Source: Candidatus Bathyarchaeia archaeon (GTDB taxonomy: Archaea; Thermoproteota; Bathyarchaeia; 40CM-2-53-6). Taken from it: 64,000 nucleotides of DNA. How positions within the stretch are numbered: the stretch's first letter is position 1; each line of letters starts with the position of its first letter. Made by a program: the position numbers and the translations under genes. Below, one piece after another: positions 4,642 through 46,176 of the stretch. The stretch is from positions 44,837 to 108,836 of the forward strand of contig JBEKPE010000001.1 in NCBI GenBank assembly GCA_049521055.1, written 5' to 3'. The notes under the pieces are model-generated. The model was not told where the DNA came from and did not search any database. It was given only the letters and a program-made list of their open reading frames with translations.

Positions 4642-4768
4642 GGAGCTCCATAGTCCATTTTTCAATCGAAATATGCTTTCCCATACAGGAGGCGCTTGGT
4701 TGGGCGTCATGGAAAGGCTCTGCTCGCGGTCGAGCCATATAGAGAGCCGTTACCACGGACGGCTGAGT

Positions 4769-13330: not shown

Positions 13331-13543
13331 CAGACCTTAAACCGCCTGGGTAGCATGCTGAATTTCGACCATTTAAAGGCTGATTTCAATCAGTAAAGGT
13401 GTGGAGGCATGTATTCAAGGCAAAAAGCAGTCGCTAAGACCGATGCAAGAATTCTCCTAGCCGACGGCCTAGCCTCGTATGGCCCAGCCGCAGAAACCCT
13501 AAGCCGCCTAAGTAACATAGGCTAAAAATGCATCATTGGTTCT

Positions 13544-14787
13544 GTTAACTTGTTGGCTCATGAGGCCTTAACTCGTTAACTCGCTTCCATCGACTTTCAG
13601 GATTACCTTCCGAGGGTTCCTGTACCATCGCTTCAACTGGAAGCGCGATTGGCGCGAACCTCACGCCTCTCGCCAGAATGTTTCTGGCCGCGTTCACATC
13701 CCTATCTACGTTCACCCTGCACGATGGACATCTCAGCAGTCGTTTCTCTTCGGGTATTCTCGCCATGCGAGACCCACATATCGAACACTTCGCTGACGTC
13801 CCGTGCGGATAAACATAGATAACTGGCAAACCTTCCCAGCGAGCTTTATACTCGATCTGACGTTGTAACTCCGCATACGACCAAGAATTCATTCTCCCTC
13901 GATACCATCGACCTTGACCGTTTCCACGTTGATACAACTTCCGAACCCCAGTGAGTTGCTCCATGACGATGCCGAAATCGCGGGTCTTGGCTTGTTGCAC
14001 AATCATTTTGGATGCTTGATGGAGAATTCGCTTAACCTTCTCCTGTTGCTTCCGACCATACTTGCTGGTTATTTCGCGGCGGGTGCGCACATCGTTTCTC
14101 CTCATGTGAGATCGTATCTCGCGGTAAGTAGCCTTTACCCGTGTCGCGCCGGAGAGGTCATGTTTCATGATCGAACCGTTCGTGGAGGCTAATGTAACAT
14201 TGTTCAGGTTCCGATCAATGCCGATGAAGCCATCCGGCTTGATCGCCGCCACATGTTTCGCATATGCAAGCGACAGCTTGTCTTGTGTCAACGTGACCGA
14301 ACGAACTGTGTGTTTACGAATTGTTGCCTGAACATGGGGGGTTAGAGGGATTCTGATCCTTTCCTTGGGATGATGGGGTAGTAACAAGTAACCATTCTTG
14401 ATCTTGAAACCGTAGCATGTGGTCAACCGCAAACGTCGAACATGCGGGGTTGTTGGCTTCTTCCCATATCTTGTAGTTCTACGATAGTTCCGGAGGATAC
14501 CTGTTGCGCTGCTCATGGCGCATAGCTTGTAGTAGCTCATAGAATCGTACTCCGTAAGTTGTTTGTACGATTTCAGAGACAGAGCCTTGAGGCTCGTGAC
14601 ATTCTCCGCCAGACCAACCTCTATGCAGGTGTTCGTCATCTGGCGGAAATCGTTAAGCATCCGTAGAATCTCGGGCCTGGGTTCGTAGTATTGTTGAACG
14701 GTTTTGATCGCCCGCATAGCCTAACCTCAACTTTCAATGTCTATTAGCGATGAGAGGTCAGTGAAACCAATGAGCCGATAAGTTAAC
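13544..14787 (-). mobile_element. IS200/IS605-family TnpB-only element, copy 3 (1244 bp) with terminal inverted repeats
   Basis: GTTAACTTGTTGGCTCAT at 13544-13561 and ATGAGCCGATAAGTTAAC at 14770-14787. Confidence 0.75.
13545..14717 (-). CDS. tnpB: TnpB/OrfB family protein (390 aa)
   Basis: Same motifs as copy 2, with about 78% aa identity. Confidence 0.9.
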   Translation of the reverse strand: MRAIKTVQQYYEPRPEILRMLNDFRQMTNTCIEVGLAENVTSLKALSLKSYKQLTEYDSMSYYKLCAMSSATGILRNYRRTTRYGKKPTTPHVRRLRLTTCYGFKIKNGYLLLPHHPKERIRIPLTPHVQATIRKHTVRSVTLTQDKLSLAYAKHVAAIKPDGFIGIDRNLNNVTLASTNGSIMKHDLSGATRVKATYREIRSHMRRNDVRTRREITSKYGRKQQEKVKRILHQASKMIVQQAKTRDFGIVMEQLTGVRKLYQRGNGQGRWYRGRMNSWSYAELQRQIEYKARWEGLPVIYVYPHGTSAKCSICGSRMARIPEEKRLLRCPSCRVNVDRDVNAARNILARGVRFAPIALPVEAMVQEPSEGNPESRWKRVNELRPHEPTS

Positions 14788-14825
14788 AGAGCCCTAATTT
14801 TCATTACTACGGGCTAAGTGAAAGC

Positions 14826-16152: not shown

Positions 16153-16818
16153 CTACGTAACTACAGCTTGCTCTAAGGTATCGGCCCTCGCCTCAACCAA
16201 TTCGAGATTGAAAGTGTCTTCAAACTTCTTTCGAACCTGCTCTTTTACGTCACGGAGGTTCAGGTCTGTGCCGAGCAAGGCTTTCATCGAGGTCATGGTT
16301 GAACCAGAGAACCCGCACGGGTTGATCTTGTAGAAGTAATTTAAGTCCGTGTTCGCGTTGAGCGCGAATCCGTGAAAGCTTACCCAGTTTCTAATCGCTG
16401 CACCGATTGAAGCAATCTTCTTGCTACCCACCCACACACCAGTTTGCTCTCCTCGCCCCCCAGCGATGCCGAACTCCCTAATCGTCAGGATGAGTGTTTG
16501 CTCGATGTTTCTTAGGAATCCATGAATGTCTCGCTTTCTCTCATTCAAGTCTAGAATTGGATAACCCACTATCTGTCCCAAGCCGTGGTACGTCCACTGG
16601 CCGCCCCGTTCTATTCGGAATACTGGGACGCCATCGATTTGGGGAGGGATGTCACCAGAGACTGCTTTGCCTACCGTGAATACGTGTGGATGTTCCACGA
16701 GGATTAAGCTGTCCGGAATAAGTTTCCTTGCCCGAAGATCAACGAGCTTGCGCTGGAGTTCCCATACTTGTGCGTATTCTCGTTGGCCGAGGTCGAGTAG
16801 GTTTCCTTTCGTTGTCAT
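16153..16818 (-). CDS. lipB: octanoyltransferase LipB
   Basis: BPL/LPL catalytic domain. LILVEHPHVFTVGK is LipB-like. Confidence 0.8.
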   Translation of the reverse strand: MTTKGNLLDLGQREYAQVWELQRKLVDLRARKLIPDSLILVEHPHVFTVGKAVSGDIPPQIDGVPVFRIERGGQWTYHGLGQIVGYPILDLNERKRDIHGFLRNIEQTLILTIREFGIAGGRGEQTGVWVGSKKIASIGAAIRNWVSFHGFALNANTDLNYFYKINPCGFSGSTMTSMKALLGTDLNLRDVKEQVRKKFEDTFNLELVEARADTLEQAVVT

Positions 16819-18218
16819 TTCTGTAGGATGTGAATCGCTTTTCCTTTTGCTGCTTCCGCTGCCTCCATCACACTTTCTGGCAAAGTGGGGTGTGGGTGAA
16901 CTGTGAGTCCAATGTCCTCTAATGTTGCTCCCATTTCTATGGCGAGAGCTGCTTCGCTAATTAGGTCTGAGGCTTCGGAGCCAACTATGTGGACACCGAG
17001 CACTAGATCGGAGCTTTTGTCGGCGACTATCTTGGCGAATCCCTCGGTTTCGCCTGCGAGGAGTGCGCGTCCCAAGGCTGTAAATGGAAACTTGCCGACG
17101 ATTGGGTCGTAGCCTTTTTCTTTTGCTTGCGATTCGGTGAGGCCGACGGTTGCGATTTCAGGGTCGGTGAATATGACTCCAGGGATCGCGTGAAAGTCAG
17201 CTTCACTGCTCATTCCCGCGATAACCTCCGCAGCGACGATTCCTTCCTTGGATGCTTTGTGTGCGAGCATGGGTGGGCCTACTACGTCCCCTATCGCGTA
17301 GACGCCCGGTAAGTTGGTTTGCATTTTCTTGTTGACTTGAATGAACCCGTGCGAATCAGTTTGGATCCCGACTTTTTCCAGGCCGATTTCGTCGCTGTTT
17401 GGGCGTCTGCCTACGGTGACTAAGACCTTGTCAGCGTCAAATGCGCCTTCCTTTCCGTCCTCTAGGGTTGCGTAGATCTTACCGTCGCGAAATTCCTTCG
17501 CCTTGGATTTGACATGGTATTCAATGCCAAGTTTTCGAAGTGACCGTTCGACGACCCTGACTAGGTCGATGTCGGTTCCGGGGAGAAGTTGGTCTAACAT
17601 TTCGATTATGGTTACTTTGGTTCCAAGCTGGGCGTACATAGTTCCCATCTCCAATCCGGTCACTCCTCCCCCGATTATGGCCAACCTCTTGGGGACCTGT
17701 TGTAGTGACAATGCTTCGGTGGAGCTGATTATGCTGGTTCCGTTGAACTTGAAGGTAGGAAGGTCGTAGTAACGCGAACCCGTGGCTATGATGATGTCCT
17801 TTGCTTCGATGATTTCCGTCCCAGTCGTGCTCTTGACTTCGAGCTGGTTAGCTGCTATGAATTTCCCGGTTCCTTTTACGAGCTTGACGTTGTTTCCTTT
17901 GAGTAAGTAATCAATACCGGATACTAGGCGATCGACCACACCCTGTTTCCAAGCTTGCACTTTAGCAAAATCTACGCTGACTCCAGTTACCTCTAGGCCA
18001 ATCTGTTTGGCTGCTTCGACTCGCTGTTTTAGTTTAGCGACGCGGATAAGTGCCTTCGAGGGTATGCACCCAATGTTTAGGCATACGCCACCCAGCTTTT
18101 CTTTCTCTATGAGGACTGTTTCCTTCCCGAGCTGCCCGAGTCGTATGGCCGCAACATAGCCACCCGGTCCACTCCCAAGCACAGCAGCCTCGATCTTCTG
18201 AGTCATTCTAACCACCAA
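16815..18218 (-). CDS. lpdA: dihydrolipoyl dehydrogenase (E3)
   Basis: GSGPGGYVAA FAD motif, redox-active GGVCLNIGCIPSK and dimerisation domain. Confidence 0.9.
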   Translation of the reverse strand: MVVRMTQKIEAAVLGSGPGGYVAAIRLGQLGKETVLIEKEKLGGVCLNIGCIPSKALIRVAKLKQRVEAAKQIGLEVTGVSVDFAKVQAWKQGVVDRLVSGIDYLLKGNNVKLVKGTGKFIAANQLEVKSTTGTEIIEAKDIIIATGSRYYDLPTFKFNGTSIISSTEALSLQQVPKRLAIIGGGVTGLEMGTMYAQLGTKVTIIEMLDQLLPGTDIDLVRVVERSLRKLGIEYHVKSKAKEFRDGKIYATLEDGKEGAFDADKVLVTVGRRPNSDEIGLEKVGIQTDSHGFIQVNKKMQTNLPGVYAIGDVVGPPMLAHKASKEGIVAAEVIAGMSSEADFHAIPGVIFTDPEIATVGLTESQAKEKGYDPIVGKFPFTALGRALLAGETEGFAKIVADKSSDLVLGVHIVGSEASDLISEAALAIEMGATLEDIGLTVHPHPTLPESVMEAAEAAKGKAIHILQK

Positions 18219-18411
18219 ATTCAGATTTATGAAGCGAAATCATGGATTAAAATTGATGTTCCTGAAGGTAGGAAACAGAGCCGTCCATTCTATTTGCTAA
18301 CCTCAACTACCCGATTGCATGCAGAAATCTGCGGCGTATGGCAAAGCTACGCTAACCTGGTCTAGCTAGCGTTTAATGGTAGTCTAAAAACTGAGTTCAA
18401 ATTCAGTCGCC

Positions 18412-18434
18412 CGCACCATTAGACCCACACACAC
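18412..18434. repeat. palindromic repeat family copy R1 (CGCACCATTAGACCCACACACAC)
   Basis: Matches the GCGyACCAyTAGmCCCACACACAC consensus. Confidence 0.6.
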
Positions 18435-18437
18435 CGT

Positions 18438-18656
18438 TTACTGGTGTGGCAGGTAGACTACCGCTCCGATAGCGAGCGTAACAATTAGAATCACGGCGAA
18501 GGCAGCAGCGAACCTGCCCGGTGTCCATCTGATGCCGTGCGAAACCCATGTGGTGCCGCCATACTTCCAAGACAGAAGCGCGTAACCGATAATTCCAGCA
18601 ACAATCACAGCGGTTCCAAGGAAAACTAAATGCAGAGGATAACTCATCAAATTCAA
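18438..18656 (-). CDS. small membrane protein (hypothetical)
   Basis: Two hydrophobic segments and no homology recognised. Confidence 0.3.
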   Translation of the reverse strand: MNLMSYPLHLVFLGTAVIVAGIIGYALLSWKYGGTTWVSHGIRWTPGRFAAAFAVILIVTLAIGAVVYLPHQ

Positions 18657-18728
18657 AACATTTCACCTACCATTAATATGTTACAACTTGCTCTTACTGG
18701 TTTTCCTAGTTTTCTCAAATCAAAATCA

Positions 18729-18764
18729 GGTGTGTGTGCGCACAAGTGATGCCACACACACTAG
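18729..18764. repeat. palindromic repeat family copy R2 (GGTGTGTGTGCGCACAAGTGATGCCACACACACTAG)
   Basis: GTGTGTG / CACACAC arms. Confidence 0.6.
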
Positions 18765-18852
18765 AACTATCCCCCTAACGATTACCTTGTCATTGACGGA
18801 ACGATTACGCTAGATCTCATGCCTGACTTGCACCACGTTTTTCCGTGTCCCT

Positions 18853-19764
18853 ATGACCATTCTCCTCAATTTGGTGTGGAGAATGACAAGCAAACGAACT
18901 GCGTATGTAATTGCTGTTCTCCTAATTCTTAGTGCTGCGGTAAACATCATGCAGTTCACCCAGAGCTCAAACCCCCTGTCATTGTCGTTTAATTCTGGCT
19001 CGAATCAGACCGTTTCATATGAGCTTCAAAGTAGCTACAATGAACTATACAACCAATACGGAACACTATATTCTGAATACCAAACGCTTTCTCAGGAATA
19101 CGCACAATTCAAACAGGTGGCGTTAACTCCTCCCTATGTCTCCATATCCAAAGGAACGATCACATGGGTGTTCACCGACGTCAAAGGCGACACGATCACA
19201 TGGCAGCTGCCAATGGACACCTACATACATTACGCCTCAATGCAAAAACCAGTACAAGTCTTGTCGTTACAGACGACCTCGGGTACGGTAACGACTGACG
19301 ATGTACGACCATACATTCAACCTTCATTTTTCGCGAACAGTATTTCAAGTCTCACCGAAGGGAGATCGGACAAGGAATTTGTGAAAGAGGTCGACAACAT
19401 AAAGAATGAACTTGTCATTTATGGAACGAGTCTGGGTGAGGCGCCGTATCAATTTCCCGCCGAGACACTAACTGAAGGGACAGGGAAATGCGCCGATACC
19501 ACGATACTGATGGCCAGTATGCTAATCGCGGGCGATCGCGAAGCAAATTACAATTTCAATGTCTATGTGGAGTACGTCCAATTGAATCCTGACGGCACGC
19601 TCGTTTCAAATAGCAACTTACTCACCGACCCGAACCATGCTATAATCAAAGTGGTATTTGCCGACGGAACAGTTTGGAGCATAGAAACAACGACCAATTA
19701 TTTCTACACTTATTCCCAAGCTTACATAGGATGGCAATTTGACGTCACGTCGGTCAATGCGTGA
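18853..19764 (+). CDS. membrane-anchored transglutaminase-like (Cys-His-Asp) domain protein
   Basis: N-terminal TM. GTGKCADTTILMASML matches the GxCxDxA Cys motif, and NHAIIKVVFADGTVWSIETT supplies His/Asp. Confidence 0.45.
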   Translation: MTILLNLVWRMTSKRTAYVIAVLLILSAAVNIMQFTQSSNPLSLSFNSGSNQTVSYELQSSYNELYNQYGTLYSEYQTLSQEYAQFKQVALTPPYVSISKGTITWVFTDVKGDTITWQLPMDTYIHYASMQKPVQVLSLQTTSGTVTTDDVRPYIQPSFFANSISSLTEGRSDKEFVKEVDNIKNELVIYGTSLGEAPYQFPAETLTEGTGKCADTTILMASMLIAGDREANYNFNVYVEYVQLNPDGTLVSNSNLLTDPNHAIIKVVFADGTVWSIETTTNYFYTYSQAYIGWQFDVTSVNA

Positions 19765-19786
19765 CAAGCCATGAACGGTCGTCGTC

Positions 19787-19810
19787 GCGCACCAAGTATA
19801 CCACACACAC
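19787..19810. repeat. palindromic repeat family copy R6 (GCGCACCAAGTATACCACACACAC)
   Basis: Right half of the consensus. Confidence 0.5.
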
Positions 19811-20085
19811 TTCACCCGACATCGGACGACGGTTGGAATGGGTTTTTTTACTCTAGAGCTTTTGACGCGTAGCTTCCTTCCTAGAGAAAAGCTACCGGAG
19901 TAGCTTTGTATTCTTTCCAGTTGGAGCTCCCCGTAGCTTTCATGGAGCTACGCGCTCATGAGAATGCAATTGGCCTACTCGCGCGTGACGAGTGACGCCG
20001 TGGATGCCTCATTCTCTATTGATTCTATTTATTCACGAGAAAGAGACATAGGCTAGAATCGCCGCAAGAAGGGAGTAGATGAATA

Positions 20086-20511
20086 ATGGTTATGCCTGAC
20101 AACAAACTCAATGCGATCAACACATATTACTCACATGTGTCGCGGCTTTTTGTATCCAATTATGCAACGTTCTTCGCGGTGTATCTTGCCTTCTTGGCTC
20201 TGTTGTACAACGTCTCTTTTAGGACCGAAGTTTCAACGAGTTTCAGGAATGGATTCTTCTATGTCAGCGTCTTGATTATGTTCTTTGAATTATTGTTGCT
20301 CTACCGAGGGCTGCAATTTGGCAGAGTCCTGGATTTGATCGATAAGGAGTGGGCAGACCTGGGGATCCTTCATGTTAGAGAACATTTCTGGCCCGAGAAA
20401 TCACGCATCGGACAATTGAACCGGCTTTATCGCACAGTGTCTGTTCCCTTGGCAATGATCCTCACGATTTGTATTCCCGTGCTGAGTTGGTTCTTTCTCT
20501 TGCGTAGCTAA
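20086..20511 (+). CDS. membrane protein (hypothetical, about 3 TM)
   Basis: Hydrophobic helices only. Confidence 0.4.
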   Translation: MVMPDNKLNAINTYYSHVSRLFVSNYATFFAVYLAFLALLYNVSFRTEVSTSFRNGFFYVSVLIMFFELLLLYRGLQFGRVLDLIDKEWADLGILHVREHFWPEKSRIGQLNRLYRTVSVPLAMILTICIPVLSWFFLLRS

Positions 20512-20530
20512 GATGAAGTTAGTGGCACAA

Positions 20531-20567
20531 TTAGTGTGTGTGCGTCGAGTGGTGGGCACAGACACAA
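20531..20567. repeat. palindromic repeat family copy R3 (TAGTGTGTGTGCGTCGAGTGGTGGGCACAGACACAAG)
   Basis: Diverged copy. Confidence 0.5.
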
Positions 20568-20587
20568 GATGATCCCAAGAAGGCGGA

Positions 20588-20950
20588 TTGGTAGCGAAAG
20601 ACTTACAGCCTTATCCACTGCGAAATCGGAATCATGGTGAGGAACGGATGCCAGCCACGAAGAGTAGGCACCGACGCAGTAAGCCAGCCAGAAAACGAGA
20701 GTCAAAGCTGAAGATACTAAACTTGACCCTCATGCAATGGTTGGGGTTTGTCTTCATGGGTTTTGGCGTCTATGTGATGTTGTATGGAATCGTGTTGATT
20801 CCGTCGAGTAGCGTTTCAATTGGACCAATCTCAATTACTGACATTCCTGGACGTTCTGCGGCGGCAATTGGCGTAGGCGCGTTCTTCGAACTAGTCGGAC
20901 TAGGGTTGGTTTCAGGAAAGATCCACATTGGTGAGCTTTCTTTCGATTGA
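20588..20950 (+). CDS. small membrane protein (hypothetical)
   Basis: Basic N-terminus and 2 TM. The start may be downstream. Confidence 0.35.
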   Translation: MVAKDLQPYPLRNRNHGEERMPATKSRHRRSKPARKRESKLKILNLTLMQWLGFVFMGFGVYVMLYGIVLIPSSSVSIGPISITDIPGRSAAAIGVGAFFELVGLGLVSGKIHIGELSFD

Positions 20951-20960
20951 CTAGATATTC

Positions 20961-22187
20961 TTGAAAACGGACCATGCGTGGAATGGGAAGCAGATGACTT
21001 CGCCCGACATATCTAAACGGACAATCGAAGAGAGCCCAGCAGGGAGAAAAGCCAATCTGCTATTGGAAGATTCACCTGAGCTCATTTACATTTGGTTTGG
21101 AGGATTACTGATACGGAGTTCGACGGCCGAACCTGACAATTTGGAGCAACTGAGAGAGAAACTTCGGTCAACGCTGACAAGCCACAAGGAAGTGAACGAA
21201 GTGTCGGACCTCAAACCAAAGAGTAGTTTGACCTGGTATAGCACAACGGCTATAGGAAGTACCTTTCCCCCATTAGTCGCAACTATTCGAGTGCCAACCA
21301 GCGACCAGCCGTTCGCCAGCGCGATTAAGGACAATTCATCCGCGGGAATCGCTCTCGCTGAAAATTTTGCTTTCGTTACCGACGGTCAGCTGCTATATGT
21401 CGGAGCAGAGTGCAATTCCCATGAGGAGTTTCGAGGCATTTTACTGGGAAGCCCTGATGTTCGTGAAAAAATCATAGGACTAATCAAAGAGGCAGTAGAG
21501 TGCGAAACCGTCGGACCGACACCTGCCCAGATTCCGTTTCTTGTTGGGCACTCGAATGCGCCAGACTGGGTCAAGAGCACTGAAGCGGTTTTCGTGAGAC
21601 TCGAAGAGATGGCAACCGTCAAAGGCGATATGGCTAGTGTTTACGATTTGACGAACGATCGCTTGAGCACATTCTATGACATAAGGTATGATGCCGATAT
21701 GACGTTGAAACAAGCGCGTGAACTTGGGGAGGATCAAACGCAGTTACTCGATCAGCTTCTGATTTTGCTAAATATGCGATGGCTTCATCCGATTCAACGC
21801 AGGCGGGTTACAAACGACATCAGAAGGAATATCGCGAACATACTAAGGCTCCTTTCTCTTCACGGCTCCACCTCCGGCCGAGTCTCTGAGGATGTTGCTG
21901 ATTTAGATGCTAAGATTGCACGAGAAAACATTCTATTTGACGCTCCTCAGAATAGCTCCTCAAACGAGGCCTTAACGAAGCTTGGGTGGAAAAAACACTC
22001 GGAGGCAGCAATTGTTGACAGAGACTCGGTTTTGAGTATTGTTGAGCATGTAAGAAGCGAAGTGCAGGTTAGCAGAAATTTGTCTGTCACAATTTGGGCT
22101 GCATTGATAGGAGCTGTCATTGGGTCGATATTGACCATCATTGGCACCTATTTCTTCTCGTTGACAAAGCTCTTTGCAGGATTGTAA
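20961..22187 (+). CDS. ORFan 408-aa protein with C-terminal tail-anchor TM helix
   Basis: Soluble body with no recognised motif, ending in LSVTIWAALIGAVIGSILTIIGTYFF. Confidence 0.5.
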   Translation: MKTDHAWNGKQMTSPDISKRTIEESPAGRKANLLLEDSPELIYIWFGGLLIRSSTAEPDNLEQLREKLRSTLTSHKEVNEVSDLKPKSSLTWYSTTAIGSTFPPLVATIRVPTSDQPFASAIKDNSSAGIALAENFAFVTDGQLLYVGAECNSHEEFRGILLGSPDVREKIIGLIKEAVECETVGPTPAQIPFLVGHSNAPDWVKSTEAVFVRLEEMATVKGDMASVYDLTNDRLSTFYDIRYDADMTLKQARELGEDQTQLLDQLLILLNMRWLHPIQRRRVTNDIRRNIANILRLLSLHGSTSGRVSEDVADLDAKIARENILFDAPQNSSSNEALTKLGWKKHSEAAIVDRDSVLSIVEHVRSEVQVSRNLSVTIWAALIGAVIGSILTIIGTYFFSLTKLFAGL

Positions 22188-22234
22188 CAAGCGGTTCTAG
22201 TGAAGCAAACCTCGGAAAAGAGCCCGACGAAATG

Positions 22235-23161
22235 CTAAGGCATCTTAATTGGGCGTCTTAGAAATCTCCAACATGCAATCCCGGCCGAAAACAGTGCCAC
22301 TATTCCAAAGATTAAACCTAGCAGGCCAGGCAGTAGGGTGGGAAGAGTGAGGACGAATGCGAGAATGTAGGCAGCTGCCCCCTTCTTATCGGACTTTGCA
22401 CCCAAAATCGCACATTCCATAGCTCCAGAAACCAAGTAAGTCATAGACGCGGCGAACCATGGCGCTGGCTTTTGGGAAGCCGTAGTGCTCTCTTGCGCAA
22501 GTCTATCTTTCAACACCCAATTCGTCGCCGTGACTTTTTGAATTACTCTTTCCAACAGGATAAAACCAGGTAGAAACCACATGAGCACCACCAAGCCCGC
22601 TAGATCCGGCGTTGGTCCTATCGCATTTTGCGGAGCCACTACGGCGTAGTAGAGATAGCTTTCGAGGATGAATGTGAAAAGACTAAGGGCAGTGGCGCAA
22701 GCAGCTGACGTCCCCAGAAGGAGCAAGTCGGATTCCGAGGCCTGATACTCGATCAGCGAAAGATACCATCGGACGATCCTACGGCCGGCAAAGGCACCAG
22801 CCGCTGTAAATATGAGTGCAATGAAGACAGTGGGAACGGGCAGCCGAGGGAAGAAATCTCGGACTAGTATGAGCGGCGCCAGTCCCATGTAAAAGAATAT
22901 TCCAATTGTGAAACACAACCAACCCCTGACTCTCTCTCGACCAGTTTCGTCGAATAGAATTGCTCCGCGTATGTAACCGACATAGAATGGGTACAGAAGT
23001 CCTGAGATTAGGAGAGGGATGAATACAAGAAATACGCCCACGCTGCCGATCATTGTCTGCAAAATCGCAAAAACTAGGTTCGTGATCCCTAGCATGAACA
23101 GAAAAGCGTCGTCAAGGGCTTTGAGTCGACCTTCAAGCCGCGGTCTAGTTAGAGAGGACAA
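22235..23161 (-). CDS. polytopic membrane protein (hypothetical)
   Basis: Roughly 8 hydrophobic segments. Confidence 0.5.
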   Translation of the reverse strand: MSSLTRPRLEGRLKALDDAFLFMLGITNLVFAILQTMIGSVGVFLVFIPLLISGLLYPFYVGYIRGAILFDETGRERVRGWLCFTIGIFFYMGLAPLILVRDFFPRLPVPTVFIALIFTAAGAFAGRRIVRWYLSLIEYQASESDLLLLGTSAACATALSLFTFILESYLYYAVVAPQNAIGPTPDLAGLVVLMWFLPGFILLERVIQKVTATNWVLKDRLAQESTTASQKPAPWFAASMTYLVSGAMECAILGAKSDKKGAAAYILAFVLTLPTLLPGLLGLIFGIVALFSAGIACWRFLRRPIKMP

Positions 23162-23349
23162 AATCCCACGAATACGATTGATTTAGGCTGGCGCATATTA
23201 ATAGACGGAGCTGTGAATTTTGAATCGCCGTCGAGTCTAGAGAGGTGCATCTTTGTCTGACGTGTGGCCCCTAATATCCACTAACGAAAACGTGTTTCCC
23301 CGCGGAAATCGCACCTAAAGGGGATGACAGATCTTCCGGTTGCGATCAC

Positions 23350-24186
23350 TCAATTTGGTTTGTTTTCGATCTCGGTTTCAACCCACTTCCCTTTGATCGA
23401 GAAACCGAGATTTCCGTATCTCTCGCTAATCCGGATCGCGCAGATTCGTATCATAAGAGGCAGGAAGTTCGTCACTTCAAGCGCGTCTTTGTTACTAAGC
23501 TGGGTTACGCCAGCCTGCCCCTTCCCCACTACGACGTGCGCGCAACGATCACGTAGTTCGTGAATGTAATTTCTCAAAAGTCTTGGGCTAAACCGCAGAT
23601 TGCGGAATTCTTCTTGAAAACGGTCCAAGAATTTGTTCAGTTCCGTGCCGAAGTCTCCCTCAGATTTGAACTCCGACTCTAAGAGCTTGTACAAAGAGAG
23701 ATACTGATATTGCAAGGGGATATGAGGATCTCTTGCATCAGTAAGAAGTCTTAGTTTATTGCGAATTGAATGAGTTGCTACGAATACGTTGCGAACGTTG
23801 TCGAAGTCCGGCTTACCTCCTATGAATTCCTTCACGGCAATGCCCGTGCGCCGTGGCTTGCCCTCTTCTATGAAAGTCCACCAATTAATCTCCCAAAGAG
23901 TAGCCCTGTTGTCGTATGTAATTCGAAGCACCGAGAGCATGTGTTCTTTGAGAGATTGCACGATGGATAAATCCTCTTCCGGAATCTTTTCCTCAGCGCA
24001 ATTTGGAACGGTGATTCTGAAGAACAGTATCCTACTATTGGCTTCATCAGCAAAAAGCGCAACCTCGTAGTCCTTCTCTCTCGTTTTAACTGTGATTCGC
24101 GCTGCGGGTGTTTTGTTCTCATCATCTTCGTATTGTTCGAGTATAGGTTCAAGCGGATAATAGATGAAGCAAGTCTTCATAATCAT
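23350..24186 (-). CDS. hypothetical protein with candidate HEPN-like Rx4H motif
   Basis: YIHELRDRCAHVV contains R-x4-H followed by a helical region. HEPN assignment is inferred from this alone; no other family recognised. Confidence 0.45.
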   Translation of the reverse strand: MIMKTCFIYYPLEPILEQYEDDENKTPAARITVKTREKDYEVALFADEANSRILFFRITVPNCAEEKIPEEDLSIVQSLKEHMLSVLRITYDNRATLWEINWWTFIEEGKPRRTGIAVKEFIGGKPDFDNVRNVFVATHSIRNKLRLLTDARDPHIPLQYQYLSLYKLLESEFKSEGDFGTELNKFLDRFQEEFRNLRFSPRLLRNYIHELRDRCAHVVVGKGQAGVTQLSNKDALEVTNFLPLMIRICAIRISERYGNLGFSIKGKWVETEIENKPN

Positions 24187-24433
24187 ACTCTAGCTTTCGC
24201 TGAACTAAACCTATTCGTGCGAACCATTGAATTGATATCGAGGGAACATTTCAGAGACAGAATGTTGATTCCTTAGCCTTAGGCAAAACTCTATGCCTGA
24301 TTCTTTTGCGTCTTTGGCAAATGCAATTCTCGCAGGAGATTGATCATTTCATTCCGTTCGCGGTACTTTACCCAGAAGTCGTTGCAAACCATTTTATTTC
24401 GAGTGATTTGTCATTTTCTTAGTAAAGAATACA

Positions 24434-25138
24434 TTGGCGACCCAAATGAGTTCCCCGACAAGTTTCCTTGTTCAAAATACGTTGTTCTACAGATGGGAGC
24501 ATACGCCGCGTAGTGGGCGAGCGGTAGTCATCTTGTACGGCGGAGCAATGCTTGATGCCCGCTGCTCTGGCACCTACAACGTCTACTCTGAGGCGTTTAG
24601 TATGAAACCTGTCAACGAGCAGGCATGGGTTAGTGAGCTTTTCGATTACGGATTAGATGTGGTGGCCCTCAGGACTGGTTCCACTTACTCAGGTTTCGAG
24701 TGTTATAGGGCGGGAGATACTTGGGTCAGGGATCTGATTGACCACCTGCAAGAGTTGCACGGAGGAGAGGTTTGTCTCTTCGGGCATAGTGCGGGGGGTT
24801 TGATTACCGCCTATGAGATTCAAGAACGGACAAGCATTACCGCAGCCGTTGTGGTGAGCGCCCCGATGCTAAGTGAACCCGATGCCCTATTCGAAACTCC
24901 GACCCATGCCTCGAATGTTAAGGCAAACCTACTTCTACAATGGGGGCAACAGGATCAACTTTGGACCAGGCGAATGCCTGAATACTACCAGAACGCGCAA
25001 GGCTGCGGCCACACCATTCAGAGAGACGACACCTACCCCGGCAATCTGCATGATACCTACTTCACCCAAGCCGCGCAAACACAAAGGAACAATGCGAAAG
25101 CCTTCCTAACCAACGCACAGGAGAACCTAGGTGACTAG
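24434..25138 (+). CDS. alpha/beta-hydrolase fold protein
   Basis: LFGHSAGG nucleophile elbow (GxSxG). Confidence 0.6.
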   Translation: MATQMSSPTSFLVQNTLFYRWEHTPRSGRAVVILYGGAMLDARCSGTYNVYSEAFSMKPVNEQAWVSELFDYGLDVVALRTGSTYSGFECYRAGDTWVRDLIDHLQELHGGEVCLFGHSAGGLITAYEIQERTSITAAVVVSAPMLSEPDALFETPTHASNVKANLLLQWGQQDQLWTRRMPEYYQNAQGCGHTIQRDDTYPGNLHDTYFTQAAQTQRNNAKAFLTNAQENLGD

Positions 25139-25178
25139 GTCCATCGTAAATCCGCCCGTCGTCGTTAACCGTTATTTT

Positions 25179-25210
25179 TAGTGTGTGTGCGCACCACTAG
25201 CCCACACACA
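25179..25210. repeat. palindromic repeat family copy R4 (TAGTGTGTGTGCGCACCACTAGCCCACACACAC)
   Basis: Best full-length copy. Followed by TTTT. Confidence 0.65.
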
Positions 25211-25278
25211 CTTTTACAAGCCACGCTAACGCTGGGAACGACGACAGTGGCAGACGACGATATGAACTGTGTTTGGAT

Positions 25279-26148
25279 TTATTCCCCCCAGGCAGCATAA
25301 CAGAAGCCAACCGTATCGCTAAGCCTCGCAAGAGGATGCTTCCAATGAATTCTGCCCACGGGACTCCGCCCATATGACCCTTCGGGATCGTAGTTTTCAG
25401 CAATCGCTGACAATTCAAGATGGGAAAGCCCTTTGAAGAATTTCCTCATAGAGTTTGCCTCTTCCTCGACCGCCTCTCTGATGTCATTATCCCGAGAGGA
25501 ATCTTGTGGGATTTCGTCTGGATCATAACCCTCTTGATAGCCATAGTACTCGTCGTAGAGTGCCTCCTCAAGACCGGAGAGTGAACCAACTTCATATGTG
25601 TACGATGCTATTTCATGACTATTATCACAATGTGGACAGTACTTCCATATTGCCTGTTCATCACTGATGTCAGCGATTTGGTAGTGTGTCGTTGAGCCGG
25701 GCACCAAATAGAGAATATAATATGCGAAGCGATTGCAGTTGTGACAAATCGGAAAACGCAACGGGAAGAGTTCGATCTCATTAGAGTCAATGTCCACGAG
25801 AGCAATTTCATATTTCTTCCCGCGCGTCTGTATGGAGTCAACATAATCGTCAATGTTCTTGTAATTGATATTGGTAGTTACATCAAAATTGGTCATAGTA
25901 CGACCGTTTGTCTTAAGTCCGGTAAAATCCGCCTTCGCTCCCGAGTCAAGCAGAGGTTCCAAATAGTACTGATCTTTGTAACGGTCGTAGAAGATTAATT
26001 CTCCTCGGGTCCCGACCACTATACGTTTATCGAGTGGTGACTTGTCAAGAATCCTCATGGCGGAGTCAAGTCCATAACGTTCGTAGGTTGCAAACACGTG
26101 AGCTCTCAAATCTCTTAACTGCGTAGCAGGATGAGATCTCAAAGTCAA
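25279..26148 (-). CDS. ORFan protein with CxxC...CxxC zinc ribbon
   Basis: CHNCN...CPHCDN and an acidic C-terminal region. Confidence 0.45.
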   Translation of the reverse strand: MTLRSHPATQLRDLRAHVFATYERYGLDSAMRILDKSPLDKRIVVGTRGELIFYDRYKDQYYLEPLLDSGAKADFTGLKTNGRTMTNFDVTTNINYKNIDDYVDSIQTRGKKYEIALVDIDSNEIELFPLRFPICHNCNRFAYYILYLVPGSTTHYQIADISDEQAIWKYCPHCDNSHEIASYTYEVGSLSGLEEALYDEYYGYQEGYDPDEIPQDSSRDNDIREAVEEEANSMRKFFKGLSHLELSAIAENYDPEGSYGRSPVGRIHWKHPLARLSDTVGFCYAAWGE

Positions 26149-26357
26149 GGCGAACCTCCTTACTTTCAGTCTTATTGCCCTATTATCTTCTTATTTGCGA
26201 CTCCTCACAGTTAAGCTCAAGATTCAATTCAATTGACTCCAGAAAACAAAGAGTCGATGACTACTTTCCTAAGGCAACTTCGTCATTCTCGGAAGTCTTG
26301 AGCCTGTTCCATCGAGAATCGAAGGCGACGCCTCTCATGCCCCTGATTTGGATTCTT

Positions 26358-26390
26358 GGTGGGTGTGCGTACCATTAGACCCACACACAC
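26358..26390. repeat. palindromic repeat family copy R5 (GGTGGGTGTGCGTACCATTAGACCCACACACAC)
   Basis: Near-identical to R1 over ACCATTAGACCCACACACAC. Confidence 0.65.
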
Positions 26391-26567
26391 AAAATTGCAT
26401 GAACACCGACGGTTCAGGAGTTGCCTACGCGTTCCTATATTCCATCCTTCCGTTCGTCGCTCGCTATTTCATTTAGAGGCCACACCTTTGGATGAGCGTG
26501 GCCGTGGAAGATTTGGGAAAGAATAGTTTGGTTACCTTGCCTTTCGGTTCACTAAGTCCGCGTTCAG

Positions 26568-27116
26568 TTGGACGCAATCGCGGGATCAATTTCTGTACCT
26601 AAATACCTAACGGCAAGCAGTCGGTCTGGCAGAGGCTTAATGCCATTTCATGTTAGGCACGCCATTGGCGAGGATCACGCTTCAATTCTTGAGATAGCGA
26701 GATCCCTGAGCCCCGAATGGTTTAGTGAACTGGGAATCAAGGATATCGCTAGAGACCTTCAGATCGAAAAGGGATTGATAGCCGAGGAAGATGGGAAGGC
26801 TGTCGGTTTTGTGATCTACTGTGCCAAAGACGACAGGACGGCGGAGTTGAGCTGGATTGGCGTTCGTCCAGAAATTCACAGAAAGGGCATCGGTCGAGCC
26901 CTTGTGAGCGCCCTTGAAGCCTCGCTAGCACAACGCGGGTTTCGGACCCTTGAAGTATCTACAGTCGCTGCAACGATCGAAGACGAATCCTACTCTAGAA
27001 CAAGAAGCTTCTATCGCGCCGTTGGGTTCTCGGATGTTCAAATTGATATGAAATGGTATCCGAGTGGGGCTGATAGGCTCCTGCTGAAGAAGCCTCTATC
27101 CAGTCAAGCGAAGTAA
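26568..27116 (+). CDS. GNAT family N-acetyltransferase
   Basis: IHRKGIGRALVSALE motif A. Confidence 0.75.
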   Translation: MDAIAGSISVPKYLTASSRSGRGLMPFHVRHAIGEDHASILEIARSLSPEWFSELGIKDIARDLQIEKGLIAEEDGKAVGFVIYCAKDDRTAELSWIGVRPEIHRKGIGRALVSALEASLAQRGFRTLEVSTVAATIEDESYSRTRSFYRAVGFSDVQIDMKWYPSGADRLLLKKPLSSQAK

Positions 27117-27174
27117 GTTCTCTCAGAATAACGGCAGGACTTCATAAGTCCATTCTGAGCGTTTAGAGCGTCAT

Positions 27175-28431
27175 TTAGTCCGTCTCGAGAAGAAGGAGCT
27201 TTGGATCTTCTAGGTATTGTTTGATTGCGTTTACGAAACGGGCTGCCATTGCGCCATCCAATACTCTGTGGTCGAAGGATAGGGAGAGGTAGGTCATGTC
27301 GCGGATTGTGATTTGGTTGTCTTTGACGACTGGCCGTTTGGTGATTTTATGTAGCCCAAGTATCGCGACTTCTGGGTAATTGATTATTGGGGTAGCGAAC
27401 ACTCCGCCGATTCCACCTACGTTGGTTATTGTAAAGGTGCTTCCCTGAACTTCATTCAACGCCAACTGACCTGCATGAGCTTTCTCGCTCAGGGTTGCAA
27501 TTTCTGTTGCGAGTTGAGTTATCGATTTGCGATCGGCATCTTTGACCACCGGAACTACTAACCCCGACTCAGTGTCAGTCGCTATTCCAATATTGTAGTA
27601 TTTCTTGAGCACTATCTCCTCTTTTTCGTCGTCCAAACTGGAGTTTAGGTACGGGTACTGTTTCAGTGCCGGAATTAGCGCCTTCATGACGAAGGGCAGG
27701 TAGGTCAACTTTACTCCACGCTTCTCAGCGGCAGCCTTCGCCGTCTCTCTCAGGTGGACGACTTCGGTCATGTCAACTTCGTCCACGTGGGTTACTTGTG
27801 CCGCCGCATTCTTGGATTTGAGCATATGTTCCGCAACTTTTCTTCGGATTCCGCGTAACGGAACCCGCTCCTCAACACCACGCGGCCCAGAAGTGGTCAC
27901 GGTTACAGCCGCGACCGCTCCCCCTAGCTGTTTGAACCGTTGCACGTCCTCGTCTGTAATTCGGCCTCCGCGGCCAGTTCCCTGGACAACAGATAGGTCT
28001 ACGCCAAGATCTCTCGCAAGCTTTCGAGTCGCAGGTGTCGCTAAGACTTCTTCGGGTTTCCGTGAAACTTGAGGGGGGGTTGTTAGTGGGATTTCTTGGG
28101 GCCTAGCAATCGTGGGTGTTTTCGCGGGTGTGGGAAGAGATGGTTTCGTGGCGACGGGGGTTCTTTCTGATCCCGGAACACTTGGTTGTCCACCTTTCTC
28201 TTCTATTGAGAGGAGAGCTTGTCCTACCTTGACGACTTCGCCCTCTTTGGCCATGAGTTTCTGGATTGTTCCTTGCTTGGGGGAAGGTATCTCTACGTTG
28301 ACCTTATCGGTCATGATCTCGACGAGGGGCTGGTTCTCCTTAATCGAGTCTCCTTCTTTCACAAGCCATTTGACAACCTCGCCTTCAGCCACGCCTTCAC
28401 CTATGTCCGGAAGGCGAAACTCGTAGACCAA
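27175..28431 (-). CDS. 2-oxoacid dehydrogenase E2 dihydrolipoamide acyltransferase
   Basis: N-terminal lipoyl domain (IMTDKVNVEIPSP), PSBD segment and C-terminal catalytic DHRVLDGA. Confidence 0.9.
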   Translation of the reverse strand: MVYEFRLPDIGEGVAEGEVVKWLVKEGDSIKENQPLVEIMTDKVNVEIPSPKQGTIQKLMAKEGEVVKVGQALLSIEEKGGQPSVPGSERTPVATKPSLPTPAKTPTIARPQEIPLTTPPQVSRKPEEVLATPATRKLARDLGVDLSVVQGTGRGGRITDEDVQRFKQLGGAVAAVTVTTSGPRGVEERVPLRGIRRKVAEHMLKSKNAAAQVTHVDEVDMTEVVHLRETAKAAAEKRGVKLTYLPFVMKALIPALKQYPYLNSSLDDEKEEIVLKKYYNIGIATDTESGLVVPVVKDADRKSITQLATEIATLSEKAHAGQLALNEVQGSTFTITNVGGIGGVFATPIINYPEVAILGLHKITKRPVVKDNQITIRDMTYLSLSFDHRVLDGAMAARFVNAIKQYLEDPKLLLLETD

Positions 28432-28451
28432 TTAGTATCACTTTGTCCTGG

Positions 28452-29426
28452 TTAGAAGTTGTGGACTTTTTCGATTGCTGTTAGGACCCGAGTGGCGTTG
28501 GGCATGTATTCGTCTTCGAGAACGTATGGGAACGGGACGTCGAAGCCTGCTACCCGTAGGATAGGCGCCTTCAAACTTAGAATGCAACGTTCCGCGATCT
28601 GTGCCGCTATTTCTGCGCCGAACCCGCAGGTCTTGCATGCTTCGTGTAGAATCACAACCCTTCCTGTTTTCTTAACTGAATTGATGATTGTTTCGATGTC
28701 GAAGGGTACGATGGTTCTGATGTCAACCACTTCCACATTGATGCCTTTGGCCGCCGCAAGTTCCGCCGCTTCCAATGCTACGTGGAGCATCGCCCCGTAA
28801 GCGAACACGACTACATCATTACCCTCGCGAGCGATGTTGGCCTTGCCTATGGGGACTGTGTATTCCTCGTCGGGTACCTCTCCGCGGACTGTTCGATAGA
28901 TTTTCTTCGGCTCAAGAAACATGACAGGATCGGGATCGCGCATTGCGGATGTGAGTAGGCCTTTGGCGTCGTAGGGTGTTGCTGGAATCACAACTTTGAG
29001 TCCCGGTGTGTGGGCGAAGAAGGCTTCAGTGCTTTGAGAATGGTAATGGCTGCCCCTGATACCGCCCCCGTAAGGGGTCCTGATCACGACTGGGGTTGTG
29101 TATTGGCCTCCGGATCGGTATCGGAACTTGGCAAGTTCGCTTTGGATTTGGTCGAACCCTGGGTAAATGAAATCCATGAACTGAATCTCCGGTACAGGCC
29201 TTAACCCATAGAGGGCCATTCCGATGGAGACCCCGATGATTCCTGATTCGGCGAGGGGTGTGTCGATGACGCGGTTTGGGCCAAATTCTTGGTATAATCC
29301 TTCAGTTGCTCGAAAAACGCCGCCGTTGATGCCTACATCTTCACCCAGTATTACCACCTTGTCGTTTCGCGTCATCTCTTCCCGTAACGCGTGGTTGACT
29401 GCTTGAACCACGTTCAGAACGGTCAA
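28452..29426 (-). CDS. 2-oxoacid dehydrogenase E1 beta subunit
   Basis: Transketolase-like pyrimidine-binding and C-terminal domains. Confidence 0.9.
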   Translation of the reverse strand: MTVLNVVQAVNHALREEMTRNDKVVILGEDVGINGGVFRATEGLYQEFGPNRVIDTPLAESGIIGVSIGMALYGLRPVPEIQFMDFIYPGFDQIQSELAKFRYRSGGQYTTPVVIRTPYGGGIRGSHYHSQSTEAFFAHTPGLKVVIPATPYDAKGLLTSAMRDPDPVMFLEPKKIYRTVRGEVPDEEYTVPIGKANIAREGNDVVVFAYGAMLHVALEAAELAAAKGINVEVVDIRTIVPFDIETIINSVKKTGRVVILHEACKTCGFGAEIAAQIAERCILSLKAPILRVAGFDVPFPYVLEDEYMPNATRVLTAIEKVHNF

Positions 29427-30511
29427 TTATGGTCCCCTTGCTGCTTCTCTTCGCGCAGCTCTCTCAACTGTTCTTCGAGATTCCACGGCATTTCGGCGTA
29501 CACATCTGTGAATAGGGTTTCGAGTGCGGGTTTCGGTAGTTTCTCAGCGTGCTGGACCGCTTCGTCTATTTCGCGGTTTGTTTCATCCTGTGTCTTCTTT
29601 TCTTCCGCTTCGCTCCACATTCCCTTCCATTCCAGGTACTTTCGGAATCGTACCAGTGGATCTCGTTTCTGCCATTCTTCTAGTTCTTGTTGTGAACTGT
29701 AGCGTTTTGGATCATCCGAAGACGAGTGTGCGCCCATGCGGTAGGTGACGGCTTCAATGAGAGTTGGGCCTCCACCCTTACGTGCTTTTTCGACGGCGTC
29801 TTTTGTGGTGCGATAGACAGCGAGAATATCGTTTCCGTCGACGCGAATACCTTCGAACCCGTAGGCCTGCGCCTTGATGGCTATAGTCTCAGAAGCGGTC
29901 TGTCGCTCGACCGGGACGGAAATGGCCCAATGGTTGTTTATGCAGAAGAATACGGTTGGAGTCTTGTATACGCCGGCGAAATTCATCCCCGTATGAAAAT
30001 CGTTTTCAGACGTGCCCCCGTCTCCGAAGTAAGTCAGCGTCACTATCGGGTCTCCTTTGATCTTCGCTGCGAGGGCCACGCCAACTGCCTGTGGGAGTTG
30101 CGTTGCTATGGGTGCGGATCCCGTAACGTAATTAGCGGTCTTGACGCCGAAGAGATTGGTCAGCTGTCGACCTTTCTGAACGTCTTCAGCATTAGCAAAG
30201 TATTGGTCGAGTAGTTGATTGAGTGTGATGCCGCGTAGAAGCATTGAACCTATTTCGCGGTATGCGGGGAAAACCCAGTCTTCCGGTTTCAAAGCATAGG
30301 CGCTTCCAATATGCGCAGCTTCCTGCCCCAAACATCCAATGTAGAAACCTATGCGTCCCTGTCGTTGCAATTGTAACCCGCGAGTATCCAGGTTTCTCGT
30401 CAGAACCATTACTCGGTAGAGCCGCTTCAACTCGTCTTTGGGGATGTCTGGCTCCATTTTCGCGACTGACTCACCGCTAGGCTTGATAACCTGCAGTAAC
30501 TCGAGAGTCAA
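29423..30511 (-). CDS. 2-oxoacid dehydrogenase E1 alpha subunit (TPP-dependent)
   Basis: TPP-binding GDGG...N motif region. The stop overlaps the E1beta start. Confidence 0.9.
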   Translation of the reverse strand: MTLELLQVIKPSGESVAKMEPDIPKDELKRLYRVMVLTRNLDTRGLQLQRQGRIGFYIGCLGQEAAHIGSAYALKPEDWVFPAYREIGSMLLRGITLNQLLDQYFANAEDVQKGRQLTNLFGVKTANYVTGSAPIATQLPQAVGVALAAKIKGDPIVTLTYFGDGGTSENDFHTGMNFAGVYKTPTVFFCINNHWAISVPVERQTASETIAIKAQAYGFEGIRVDGNDILAVYRTTKDAVEKARKGGGPTLIEAVTYRMGAHSSSDDPKRYSSQQELEEWQKRDPLVRFRKYLEWKGMWSEAEEKKTQDETNREIDEAVQHAEKLPKPALETLFTDVYAEMPWNLEEQLRELREEKQQGDHN

Positions 30512-46155: not shown

Positions 46156-46176
46156 TTTCGTGTGTGTGCCACACGG
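46156..46176. repeat. partial copy R7 of palindromic repeat (TTTCGTGTGTGTGCCACACGG)
   Basis: GTGTGTGTGCC/CACAC arms at the edge of the AT-rich glyA segment. Confidence 0.4.

Follow-up and report, generated by a model that had tools for sequence, protein, structure and literature searches.

Genomic setting

The stretch analysed here (the window, meaning its full 64 kb) comes from a contig of Candidatus Bathyarchaeia archaeon (JBEKPE010000001.1), and the element in question is a short intergenic repeat of which six copies, read directly in the sequence, lie in or at the edge of a variable segment. The window encodes both subunits of DNA polymerase D and Alba, which are archaeal, and is identical to a JGI soil metagenome contig (Ga0427918) and to a Logan assembly (SRR12951267); its nearest relatives are metagenome-assembled genomes (MAGs) of Bathyarchaeia with about 87% nucleotide identity. 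The variable segment divides the 2-oxoacid dehydrogenase gene set between lpd and E2, with lpd/lipB at 16153-18218 on one side and E2, E1-beta and E1-alpha at 27175-30511 on the other:

16815-18218, minus strand: lpd (E3), the conserved flank on the side of copy 1
18435-27169, no strand: variable segment (the island) of about 8.7 kb with about 10 open reading frames (ORFs)
27175-28431, minus strand: E2 acyltransferase, the conserved flank on the far side; the motif is absent at that boundary

Among the proteins of the segment are an ORFan membrane protein, a transglutaminase-like protein of 303 amino acids (aa), a weakly MauJ-like protein, an alpha/beta hydrolase and a GNAT protein, and most received no family assignment in Pfam, PHROG and PADLOC scans.

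Copies of the repeat in the window

The copies and the features related to them are the following (classes A and B are described in the next section):

18331-18418, plus strand: decayed tRNA-Gly-like stretch, GCGGCG...CCTGGTCTAG...GAGTTCAAATTCAG.CGCCCGC-A-CCA, running into copy 1 and kept in five loci
18392-18434, plus strand: copy 1, class A, core CGCACCATTAGACC and CA arm (nhmmer E=5e-13)
18729-18761, plus strand: copy 2, hairpin form GGTGTGTGTG CGCACAAGTGATGC CACACACAC, with the diverged core CGCACAAGTGATGC
19787-19810, plus strand: copy 3, core and CA arm only (GCGCACCAAGTATACCACACACAC), left side CGTCGTCGTC, no hairpin
20534-20565, minus strand: copy 4, degenerate hairpin form, core legible on the minus strand only (CCCACCACTCGACG; CCCACCACTCGACGCACAC)
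25181-25211, plus strand: copy 5, canonical class B hairpin GTGTGTGTGCGCACCACTAGCCCACACACAC (E=5e-9)
26358-26390, plus strand: copy 6, class B with an imperfect left arm (GGTGGGTGTG; E=5e-11)
46160-46174, no strand: a supposed seventh copy, GTGTGTGTGCCACAC, with arms and no core; membership doubtful

Copy 1 consists of a T-arm-like GAGTTCAAATTCAG, an acceptor-like TCGCCCGC, A-CCA and then TTAGACCCACACACAC, and it has in common with copy 6 the 20-nt ACCATTAGACCCACACACAC, present as a direct repeat. The core of copy 5 is one base shorter (ACCACTAG-CCC) and is directly followed by TTTT, and the cores of copies 2, 3 and 4 are strongly diverged. As the stretch at 18331-18418 gave no Rfam tRNA match, it is to be regarded as a resemblance or a pseudogene only; Rfam, run over the entire window at gathering thresholds, returned nothing, and there is no tRNA in the window.

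The repeat had been reported in a first-pass annotation of the window, and the copies at 18.4-26.4 kb proved to be real and far above chance. The pattern given there has 3 matches with up to 3 mismatches (0.01 expected), CCACACACAC has 12 at up to 1 mismatch (2.7 expected, and none of 100 shuffles reached 12), and the family core CGCACCAYTAGACCCACAC has 3 (0.03 expected). All copies lie between ORFs, as had been stated, and all fall inside 18.4-26.4 kb, none being detected over the other ~55 kb of the window or in the 8.7 kb preceding its start. The same annotation held that all copies share one orientation, which fails at copy 4, where the core matches on the minus strand only. Its stem of 9-10 bp was recovered in copies 2, 4 and 5 and imperfectly in copy 6, and is missing from copies 1 and 3, which lack a GT arm and whose folds do not surpass those of shuffles (z=+0.35 for copy 3). 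The DNA fold energies of copies 2, 4, 5 and 6 were -11.5, -7.9, -10.7 and -6.3 kcal/mol, the first three clearly better than shuffles (z=-3.3, -2.05 and -5.85) and the last marginal (z=-1.09). The partial copy that had been placed at 46156 turned out to be only GTGTGTGTGCCACAC, without a core; with a fold z of -1.2 and a match to none of the family hidden Markov models, it cannot be assigned to the family.

The repeat family across Bathyarchaeia

When 185,579 species-representative genomes were searched for ACCAYTAG(N)CCCACACACAC, 74 loci were obtained, of which about 68 belong to Bathyarchaeia of soil, peat and sediment, and a metagenome scan with the core gave at least 120 loci. Profile searches of the collected loci (cited here by L numbers) yielded, among the matches listed, 470 copies, 437 of them non-redundant, in 1.24 Mb. 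Long contigs carry several copies each, on both strands, at about 3-5 exact copies per Mb. The dispersed family that had been supposed from the window is thus found across Bathyarchaeia, and the genome-wide pattern search suggested at the time shows the motif to be present outside the window and not uniform at gene 3' ends. The specific motif was absent from viral contigs, where generic GT/CA hairpins are unrelated to the family. In the literature searched, no published description of this repeat family was found.

Two architectures have CGCACCAYTAGACC(CA)n in common. Class A (164 copies) resembles the T-arm and acceptor of a tRNA, acgGTTCAAaTT..g.tGCcCGC-ACCA-cTAgacCCACACACAc..aaa, and class B (107 copies with 9-bp arms) reads ttt.tGTGTGTGtGCGC-ACCA-.TAGACCCACACACac, so that GTGTGTGTG...CACACACAC makes a hairpin with this core inside it; the consensus begins with ttt.tGTGTGTG and finishes CACACac.aa. 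The hairpin is possible in class B only. In class A the tRNA-like left arm replaces the GT arm, 148 of the 164 copies being without a 6-nt arm complement, and about half of all copies have such a left arm and cannot form the hairpin. Rare arms (G-run/C-run or GGCGGCGGGGGCGGC/GCCGCCCCCGCCGC) always occur in unmatched combinations. The covariation check of the stem that had been advised was run and was uninformative, the arms being conserved in sequence. The defining conserved element is the core CGCACCAYTAGACC and not the hairpin, on which the earlier description had been built.

That the core CGC-A-CCA equals a tRNA-Gly gene's 3' end is concluded from what is seen in three places. In locus L099, positions 6747-6837 are a tRNA (Rfam 41.7 bits, E=1e-7; anticodon loop CUUCCAA, hence Gly) which ends ...CCCGGGTCCGAATCCCGGCGGCCGC-A and is followed by a degenerate motif and then two class A units. 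L045 (weak tRNA signal, 13.8 bits) and L085 (no signal) have this tRNA 3' half joined to a perfect CCACTAGACCCACACACAC. Moreover the class A units, from GGTTCAAAT to the CCA end, measure 5+7+1+3 nt, exactly the T-stem strand, acceptor, discriminator and CCA of a tRNA. Identity to a tRNA 3' end, a property of attachment (att) sites, was therefore found in the L099 tRNA-Gly ending GGCGGCCGC-A, in L045 and L085 and in the spacing of class A. Most copies are not tRNAs. When class A units were considered as genuine tRNAs, no Rfam match was obtained in 8 loci or for copy 1, and the ARAGORN calls were doubtful except for L099. In the L099 tRNA-Gly(UCC) itself about 20 nt are inserted in the D-arm region, at a position that is non-canonical for an intron, and ARAGORN miscalls this gene as tRNA-Leu(TAG).

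Several further features accompany the family. A second element of about 65 nt, CTATGAAAAGTC...GGCGTTCA(A/G)G, adjoins truncated CA arms in at least five loci (L070 1268-1331, L076, L087, L088 and L099 6944-7010) and may be another small repeat or a small RNA targeting the CA arm. The box TTTTCTRACGACGAACGACGAC often bridges a class B unit and the class A unit after it (e.g. L049 296-318, L048, L070, L072), and its reverse complement CGTCGTCGTT stands just before window copies 3 and 5. Typical class A or B copies with the family flanking boxes also occur in L025, L036 (five copies) and L052, from MAGs labelled Acidoferrum, Methylomirabilota and beta-proteobacterium; these contigs are probably mis-binned Bathyarchaeia. 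Runs of N, which are masked stretches of the genome collection (L066 ~3960-4045, ~4230-4315 and ~2705-2740; L071 5089-5348), coincide with motif copies or tRNA-like units in the near-identical metagenome contigs L149, L196 and L203.

Synteny breaks and strain-level insertions

In the relatives L084 and L056 (~87% identity) homology to the window extends up to 18434, the final base of copy 1. Beyond this point each relative has different DNA, and homology returns at 27170, just past the E2 stop codon; L084 carries 2.1 kb with a KaiC-like gene in place of the window's 8.7 kb, and L056 and L026 differ again. Over all loci, only one of about 60 homologous blocks of at least 250 nt spans a copy, and for 14 of 305 ends of high-scoring segment pairs a motif edge is no more than 5 nt away, compared with 1% of random points. 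At non-identical loci with one flank conserved, a homolog was found for 3 of 85 ORFs across the motif and for 33 of 69 on the conserved side, these counts being filtered for neighbouring repeat modules. The link to variable or acquired DNA proposed from the window was thus borne out, both by the synteny break exactly at copy 1 and by gain and loss events flanked by the motif.

Two of these events can be followed between close strains. L210 has a single site, ...GTGTGTGTGTGCGCACCACTGGTACTACGC..., where the near-identical L051 has an 894-nt single-gene insert with the junctions ...GTGTGTGTGTGCGCACCA to GTATTACCACACAC... and ...GCGCTGTGTGCGCACCA to CTGGTACT..., which have only the 13-nt TGTGTGCGCACCA in common. 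L149 has one class A site where L203 and L066 have instead a 940-nt KaiC-like cassette, whose ends are a class A-type and a class B-type site, with a 29-nt direct duplication. In both insertions the junctions lie in the core. Direct repeats flanking an insert, as expected of att sites, were accordingly found in L051 against L210, in L203/L066 against L149, and between window copies 1 and 6 (20 nt). In cassettes common to different genomes the homology starts at CGCACCA and the left arms differ (GT, GGCGG or tRNA-like); cassettes starting in this way include one with TFS (L071/L076/L085), one with a 164-aa membrane protein (L085/L059/L033) and one common to L070 and L121.

None of 10 indel events between close strains was a solo repeat unit, and no inversions between inverted copies were seen. 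The comparison of L055 with the window shows a separate island of 6.9 kb (L055 209-7136, against window ~823), which sits just after the stop codon of the window gene 140-811, has an AAATGG direct repeat at its ends and contains EamA, a KaiC-like ATPase, a metallo-beta-lactamase-fold protein, ORFans and three motif copies.

Position relative to genes

Copies overlap an ORF in 23% of cases, against an ORF coverage of 78%, and lie at a median of 83-89 nt from gene 3' ends and 141-180 nt from 5' ends. The 3' end of a co-oriented upstream gene is preferred (185 vs 118, p=1.4e-4; class B alone 23 vs 8), and 18% of the classified copies lie between divergent genes, where they are under-represented. 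Successive copies have the same orientation in 153 cases and opposite orientations in 97 (p=5e-4), and neighbours within 150 nt are arranged in tandem (17), head-to-head (10) or tail-to-tail (1). L049 contains two identical composites of about 105 nt bounded by GTGTGTGTG...CACACACAC. A run of four T occurs within 10 nt of 23 of 418 copies (5.5%), and a run of four A in 24%. In the window, copies 3 and 5 (plus strand, same as the gene) and copy 4 (minus strand) are found 20-42 nt after plus-strand genes, and copies 1, 2 and 6 are upstream of genes. A promoter role of class A, with TTCAAATT as TATA box, was considered and rejected, there being no bias to co-oriented downstream genes (30 vs 36).

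The genes that recur beside the motif encode KaiC-like ATPases (34 genes in 27 loci), ABC ATPases, TBP, TFS, and Lrp-type, CBS, methyltransferase, hydrolase and nitroreductase proteins. The KaiC-like/RecA-superfamily ATPases, of about 235 aa, are the commonest gene adjoining the motif (27 of 194 loci, e.g. L042 5340-6041 and L066 1823-2530); their nearest solved relatives are Pyrococcus PH0284 and PH0186, and one of them is the cargo of a strain-variable cassette.

Recombinase search and other features of the window

Neither the window island nor the L055 island has a match to PF00589, and searches of the island proteins against Pfam, PHROG, PADLOC and PDB gave nothing relevant to a recombinase. 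Among the recurrent neighbour families in the 1.24 Mb there is no Y1/RAYT gene.

The 303-aa island protein (18853-19764), named transglutaminase-like cysteine protease in some sources, has more than 50 homologs with 47-93% identity in Bathyarchaeia metagenomes. One is encoded on a 6.7-kb element (L213) together with an integrase and a Holliday-junction-resolvase-like gene, and two (L214, L215) have a motif copy just upstream, its core being the variant CGCACCAGCTGACC. Beside a FAA-hydrolase gene in a Bathyarchaeia MAG (L216 8001-17215, and L217) lies a provirus that encodes a tyrosine integrase and a large terminase and has small ORFs; it was also assembled separately as an 8.3-kb contig, and its border has neither the motif nor a tRNA.

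The window contains three TnpB-only elements of the IS200/IS605 type (Cas12f-like), at 1131-2448, 3382-4646 and 13530-14792, two of which are 77% identical to each other. Since L055 and L056 lack the TnpB copies at 1131-2448 and ~13.4-15.9 kb, these are recent insertions. A link between them and the repeat was examined and rejected, as no motif was found at their homology ends. The glyA gene (serine hydroxymethyltransferase, 44526-45869) is in a stretch of 40-44% GC, compared with about 50% elsewhere, and the syntenic relative L064 has, at the glyA position, two class A copies after the upstream gene; the GT/CA remnant at 46160 could be the leftover of a site.

Interpretation

On balance we favour the reading of this repeat as an attachment-type recombination site lying at the junctions of serially captured cassettes. 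The site would descend from a tRNA-Gly gene's 3' end together with the flank downstream of it, with CGC-A-CCA-YTAGACC as the constant part followed by a (CA)n arm. Class A would represent the chromosomal or hybrid partner (attB) and the class B palindrome the partner on the incoming DNA (attP). A module bringing a class B site would recombine with a resident site at or beside the core and so come to lie between two direct copies, one with the resident left arm and the other with the left arm of the module, and repetition would build arrays of the form site-gene-site-gene. In the window the resident site would be copy 1, next to lpd and conserved in the relatives, and copies 2-6 would separate the five or six modules that form the 8.7-kb island. 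The order observed (resident left arm, core and incoming DNA, then incoming left arm, core and resident right side) fits a conservative two-site recombination. Seen in the sequences are the family and its two architectures, the identity of the core with a tRNA-Gly end, homology breaks and insertion junctions that coincide exactly with the core or the arms, and the direct duplication at both strain-level insertions. As no recombinase was found, this reading is inferred; the recombination would be the work of a dedicated enzyme, probably a tyrosine integrase acting in trans, and it is likewise presumed that the events were insertions rather than deletions and that the hairpin may have some role.

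Several observations weigh against this reading. The window island, the L055 island and the recurrent motif-neighbour families yielded no integrase or transposase, and the one integrase family to which a homolog of the 303-aa island gene led belongs to a provirus with no motif nearby. Rfam fails to recognise copy 1 or most class A units as tRNA. The cassette with the 164-aa protein is bounded by inverted and not by direct copies, the L055 island is bounded by AAATGG and not by the motif, there is no site at the E2-side boundary of the window island, the motif is merely absent in one strain when L077 is compared with L069, and the tandem arrays of 49-nt class A units are unexplained by cassette integration. 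In addition, the loci were selected for carrying the motif and the ORFs are crude longest-ORF calls. Finally, the core and the CA arm are present in nearly all copies, so that ordinary or microhomology-mediated recombination between repeats would give the same junctions, and site specificity is favoured by the 13-nt junction of L051 alone.

The main rival, which is a serious one even if we hold it to be unlikely, is that these are selfish or structural palindromic repeats like the repetitive extragenic palindromes (REP) and bacterial interspersed mosaic elements (BIME), spread by some transposase, such as a RAYT-like enzyme, or by gene conversion, and then tolerated near gene 3' ends. Their presence at breakpoints would then be a by-product, because dispersed near-identical repeats of 25-45 nt attract ectopic recombination. 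The low overlap of the copies with ORFs and their closeness to gene 3' ends agree with this, as do their greater distance from 5' ends, their rarity between divergent genes, the stacking in one spacer with tandem and head-to-head pairs predominating, as in BIME and REPIN doublets, and the identical composites of L049. CGTC-type REPs likewise have no dedicated transposase and have CCA tails (PMC3733652). Against it stands that none of the ten close-strain indels was a solo unit, that no Y1/RAYT gene recurs beside the copies, that the foot of the hairpin has neither a GTAG nor a CGTC tag, that half of the copies, those of class A, are not palindromic, and that the copy number is low, about 3-5 exact per Mb; moreover the copies are concentrated in variable regions, and the junctions of both strain-level inserts fall within the core. 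A MITE (miniature inverted-repeat transposable element) with mobility of its own, as the first-pass annotation had pictured, was not supported: solo-unit polymorphism, target duplication, an associated transposase and an empty palindromic target were not seen. A transposon with a palindromic empty target was rejected in the same way, no (GT)4GCGC(AC)4 sites being found.

It is improbable, in our opinion, that the repeat is a terminator or another transcript 3'-end element, that is, a hairpin or a tRNA-like 3' structure cut by tRNA-end enzymes and travelling as part of a transcription unit. The preference for the 3' end of a co-oriented upstream gene, the median distance of about 80 nt from the stop codon and the position of copies 3, 4 and 5 shortly after plus-strand genes, with TTTT after copy 5, would suit it. 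Archaeal intrinsic termination depends on oligo-T, and in this family a T-run follows only 5.5% of the copies and an A-run 24%, which agrees with the opinion already expressed in the first-pass annotation that this is no typical terminator. Copies between divergent genes and the location of window copies 1, 2 and 6 upstream of genes also speak against it; at the observed density fewer than about 2% of genes could bear such an element, and the core junctions and the swapping of arms would stay unexplained. Far less probable is a true integron, with the copies as attC sites of an integrase-less cluster (CALIN). It would account for arrays of small, mostly single-gene units between hairpin-capable sites of largely uniform orientation. 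The sites here measure 32-45 nt, and attC sites 57-141 nt; the consensus has by eye no R''/R' core sites (RYYYAAC...GTTRRRY), sequence rather than structure is conserved, there is no IntI gene in the window island or the L055 island, and the copies are scattered over many loci in both orientations. Integrons and CALINs do exist in archaeal MAGs (PMC9668308). Least credible of all is an assembly artefact in which the synteny breaks are chimeric joins at a short repeat. The data are mostly metagenome-assembled contigs, which would suit it, but the window arrangement is identical in two independent data sets (JGI Ga0427918 and Logan SRR12951267), the KaiC-like insert occurs in two independent assemblies (L066 and L203), and the motif is present in megabase-scale contigs. 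Besides, the repeat is shorter than the usual final assembly k-mer sizes.

Tentatively, and with less confidence than for the recombination-site reading itself, we raise the possibility that terrestrial Bathyarchaeia possess an undescribed genome-wide cassette-exchange system. In this proposal, which we rate as somewhat unlikely, a recombinase acting in trans on the core CGCACCAYTAGACC would insert, excise and shuffle single-gene modules at dozens of sites, the hairpin sites being those on the mobile modules, and the modules may include KaiC-like ATPases, extra copies of TBP and TFS, small regulators and ORFans. Bathyarchaeia are abundant and uncultured in soils, peat and sediments. If the copies are recombination sites, the flexible genome could be delimited through them gene by gene, cassettes and strain variation could be traced in metagenomes by a simple sequence, and a recombinase with potential as a tool would be indicated. 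The attachment to tRNA ends known from archaeal integrases, so far a matter of a few large elements, would then apply to many miniature modules as well. Should they be only REP-like, they would still be among the few well-defined interspersed repeat families of archaea and a useful marker of the clade.

Comparison with known systems

In its working the family comes closest to the att sites of integrative elements that target tRNA genes and, where arrays are concerned, to integron cassettes. Integrons and CALINs have in common with this family the small, promoter-less-looking cassettes, each with a hairpin-capable site at its boundary, the resident site beside conserved genes that takes different cassettes in each strain, and the mostly uniform orientation of the arrays. 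Unlike them, the family has no R/L boxes or IntI, its sites are shorter and conserved in sequence, and it occupies many dispersed loci, with inverted pairs present. If the proposed cassette exchange is true, it would be an archaeal, dispersed functional counterpart of the integron.

In the pdif modules of Acinetobacter plasmids, genes lie between short Xer sites, some of them in inverted pairs, and the recombinase is encoded elsewhere. The discrete modules, the short sites, the differing contexts and some inverted site pairs are similar here. The anatomy of the family departs from that of Xer/dif sites (11-nt inverted arms with a 6-8-nt spacer), with arms of 9-11 nt around a centre of 13-14 nt as opposed to 11-6-11 in dif, and its setting is an archaeal chromosome.

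REP, BIME and REPIN sequences, and the dRS3 repeats and Neisseria intergenic mosaic elements (NIME), resemble the family in being short, intergenic, partly palindromic, clustered, stacked in spacers, biased to gene 3' ends and found at rearrangement points. Neisseria dRS3 (CGTC-1) repeats are found grouped within sizeable intergenic stretches of mosaic make-up, and REPs are defined by having GTAG (or CGTC) as a conserved tetranucleotide at one hairpin foot (PMC3733652). The REP format of a short imperfect palindrome (20-40 nt), extragenic and in many copies, suits class B and not class A. The present family differs in its low copy number, in having no GTAG/CGTC tag and no RAYT found, in being half non-palindromic and in the derivation of its core from a tRNA end.

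Lastly, the att sites of archaeal tRNA-targeting tyrosine integrases, together with the "gene capture" of integrated elements, are reportedly the subject of work by She et al. from 2001-2004, with a review in PMC8371274. Here the sites number tens per genome instead of one or two and lie far from functional tRNA genes, the modules are often single genes of about 0.9 kb with no integrase in cis, the partner carried by the element is a (GT)n/(CA)n palindrome, and 49-nt class A units form tandem arrays. Archaeal tyrosine integrases favour tRNA 3' ends, with sites as short as the acceptor end or extending past the gene (PMC8371274). In both cases the core is the tRNA 3' end (acceptor, discriminator and CCA) running into the downstream flank, direct repeats surround the inserts, the island starts right after a tRNA-like remnant, and captured DNA without its integrase is a known outcome.

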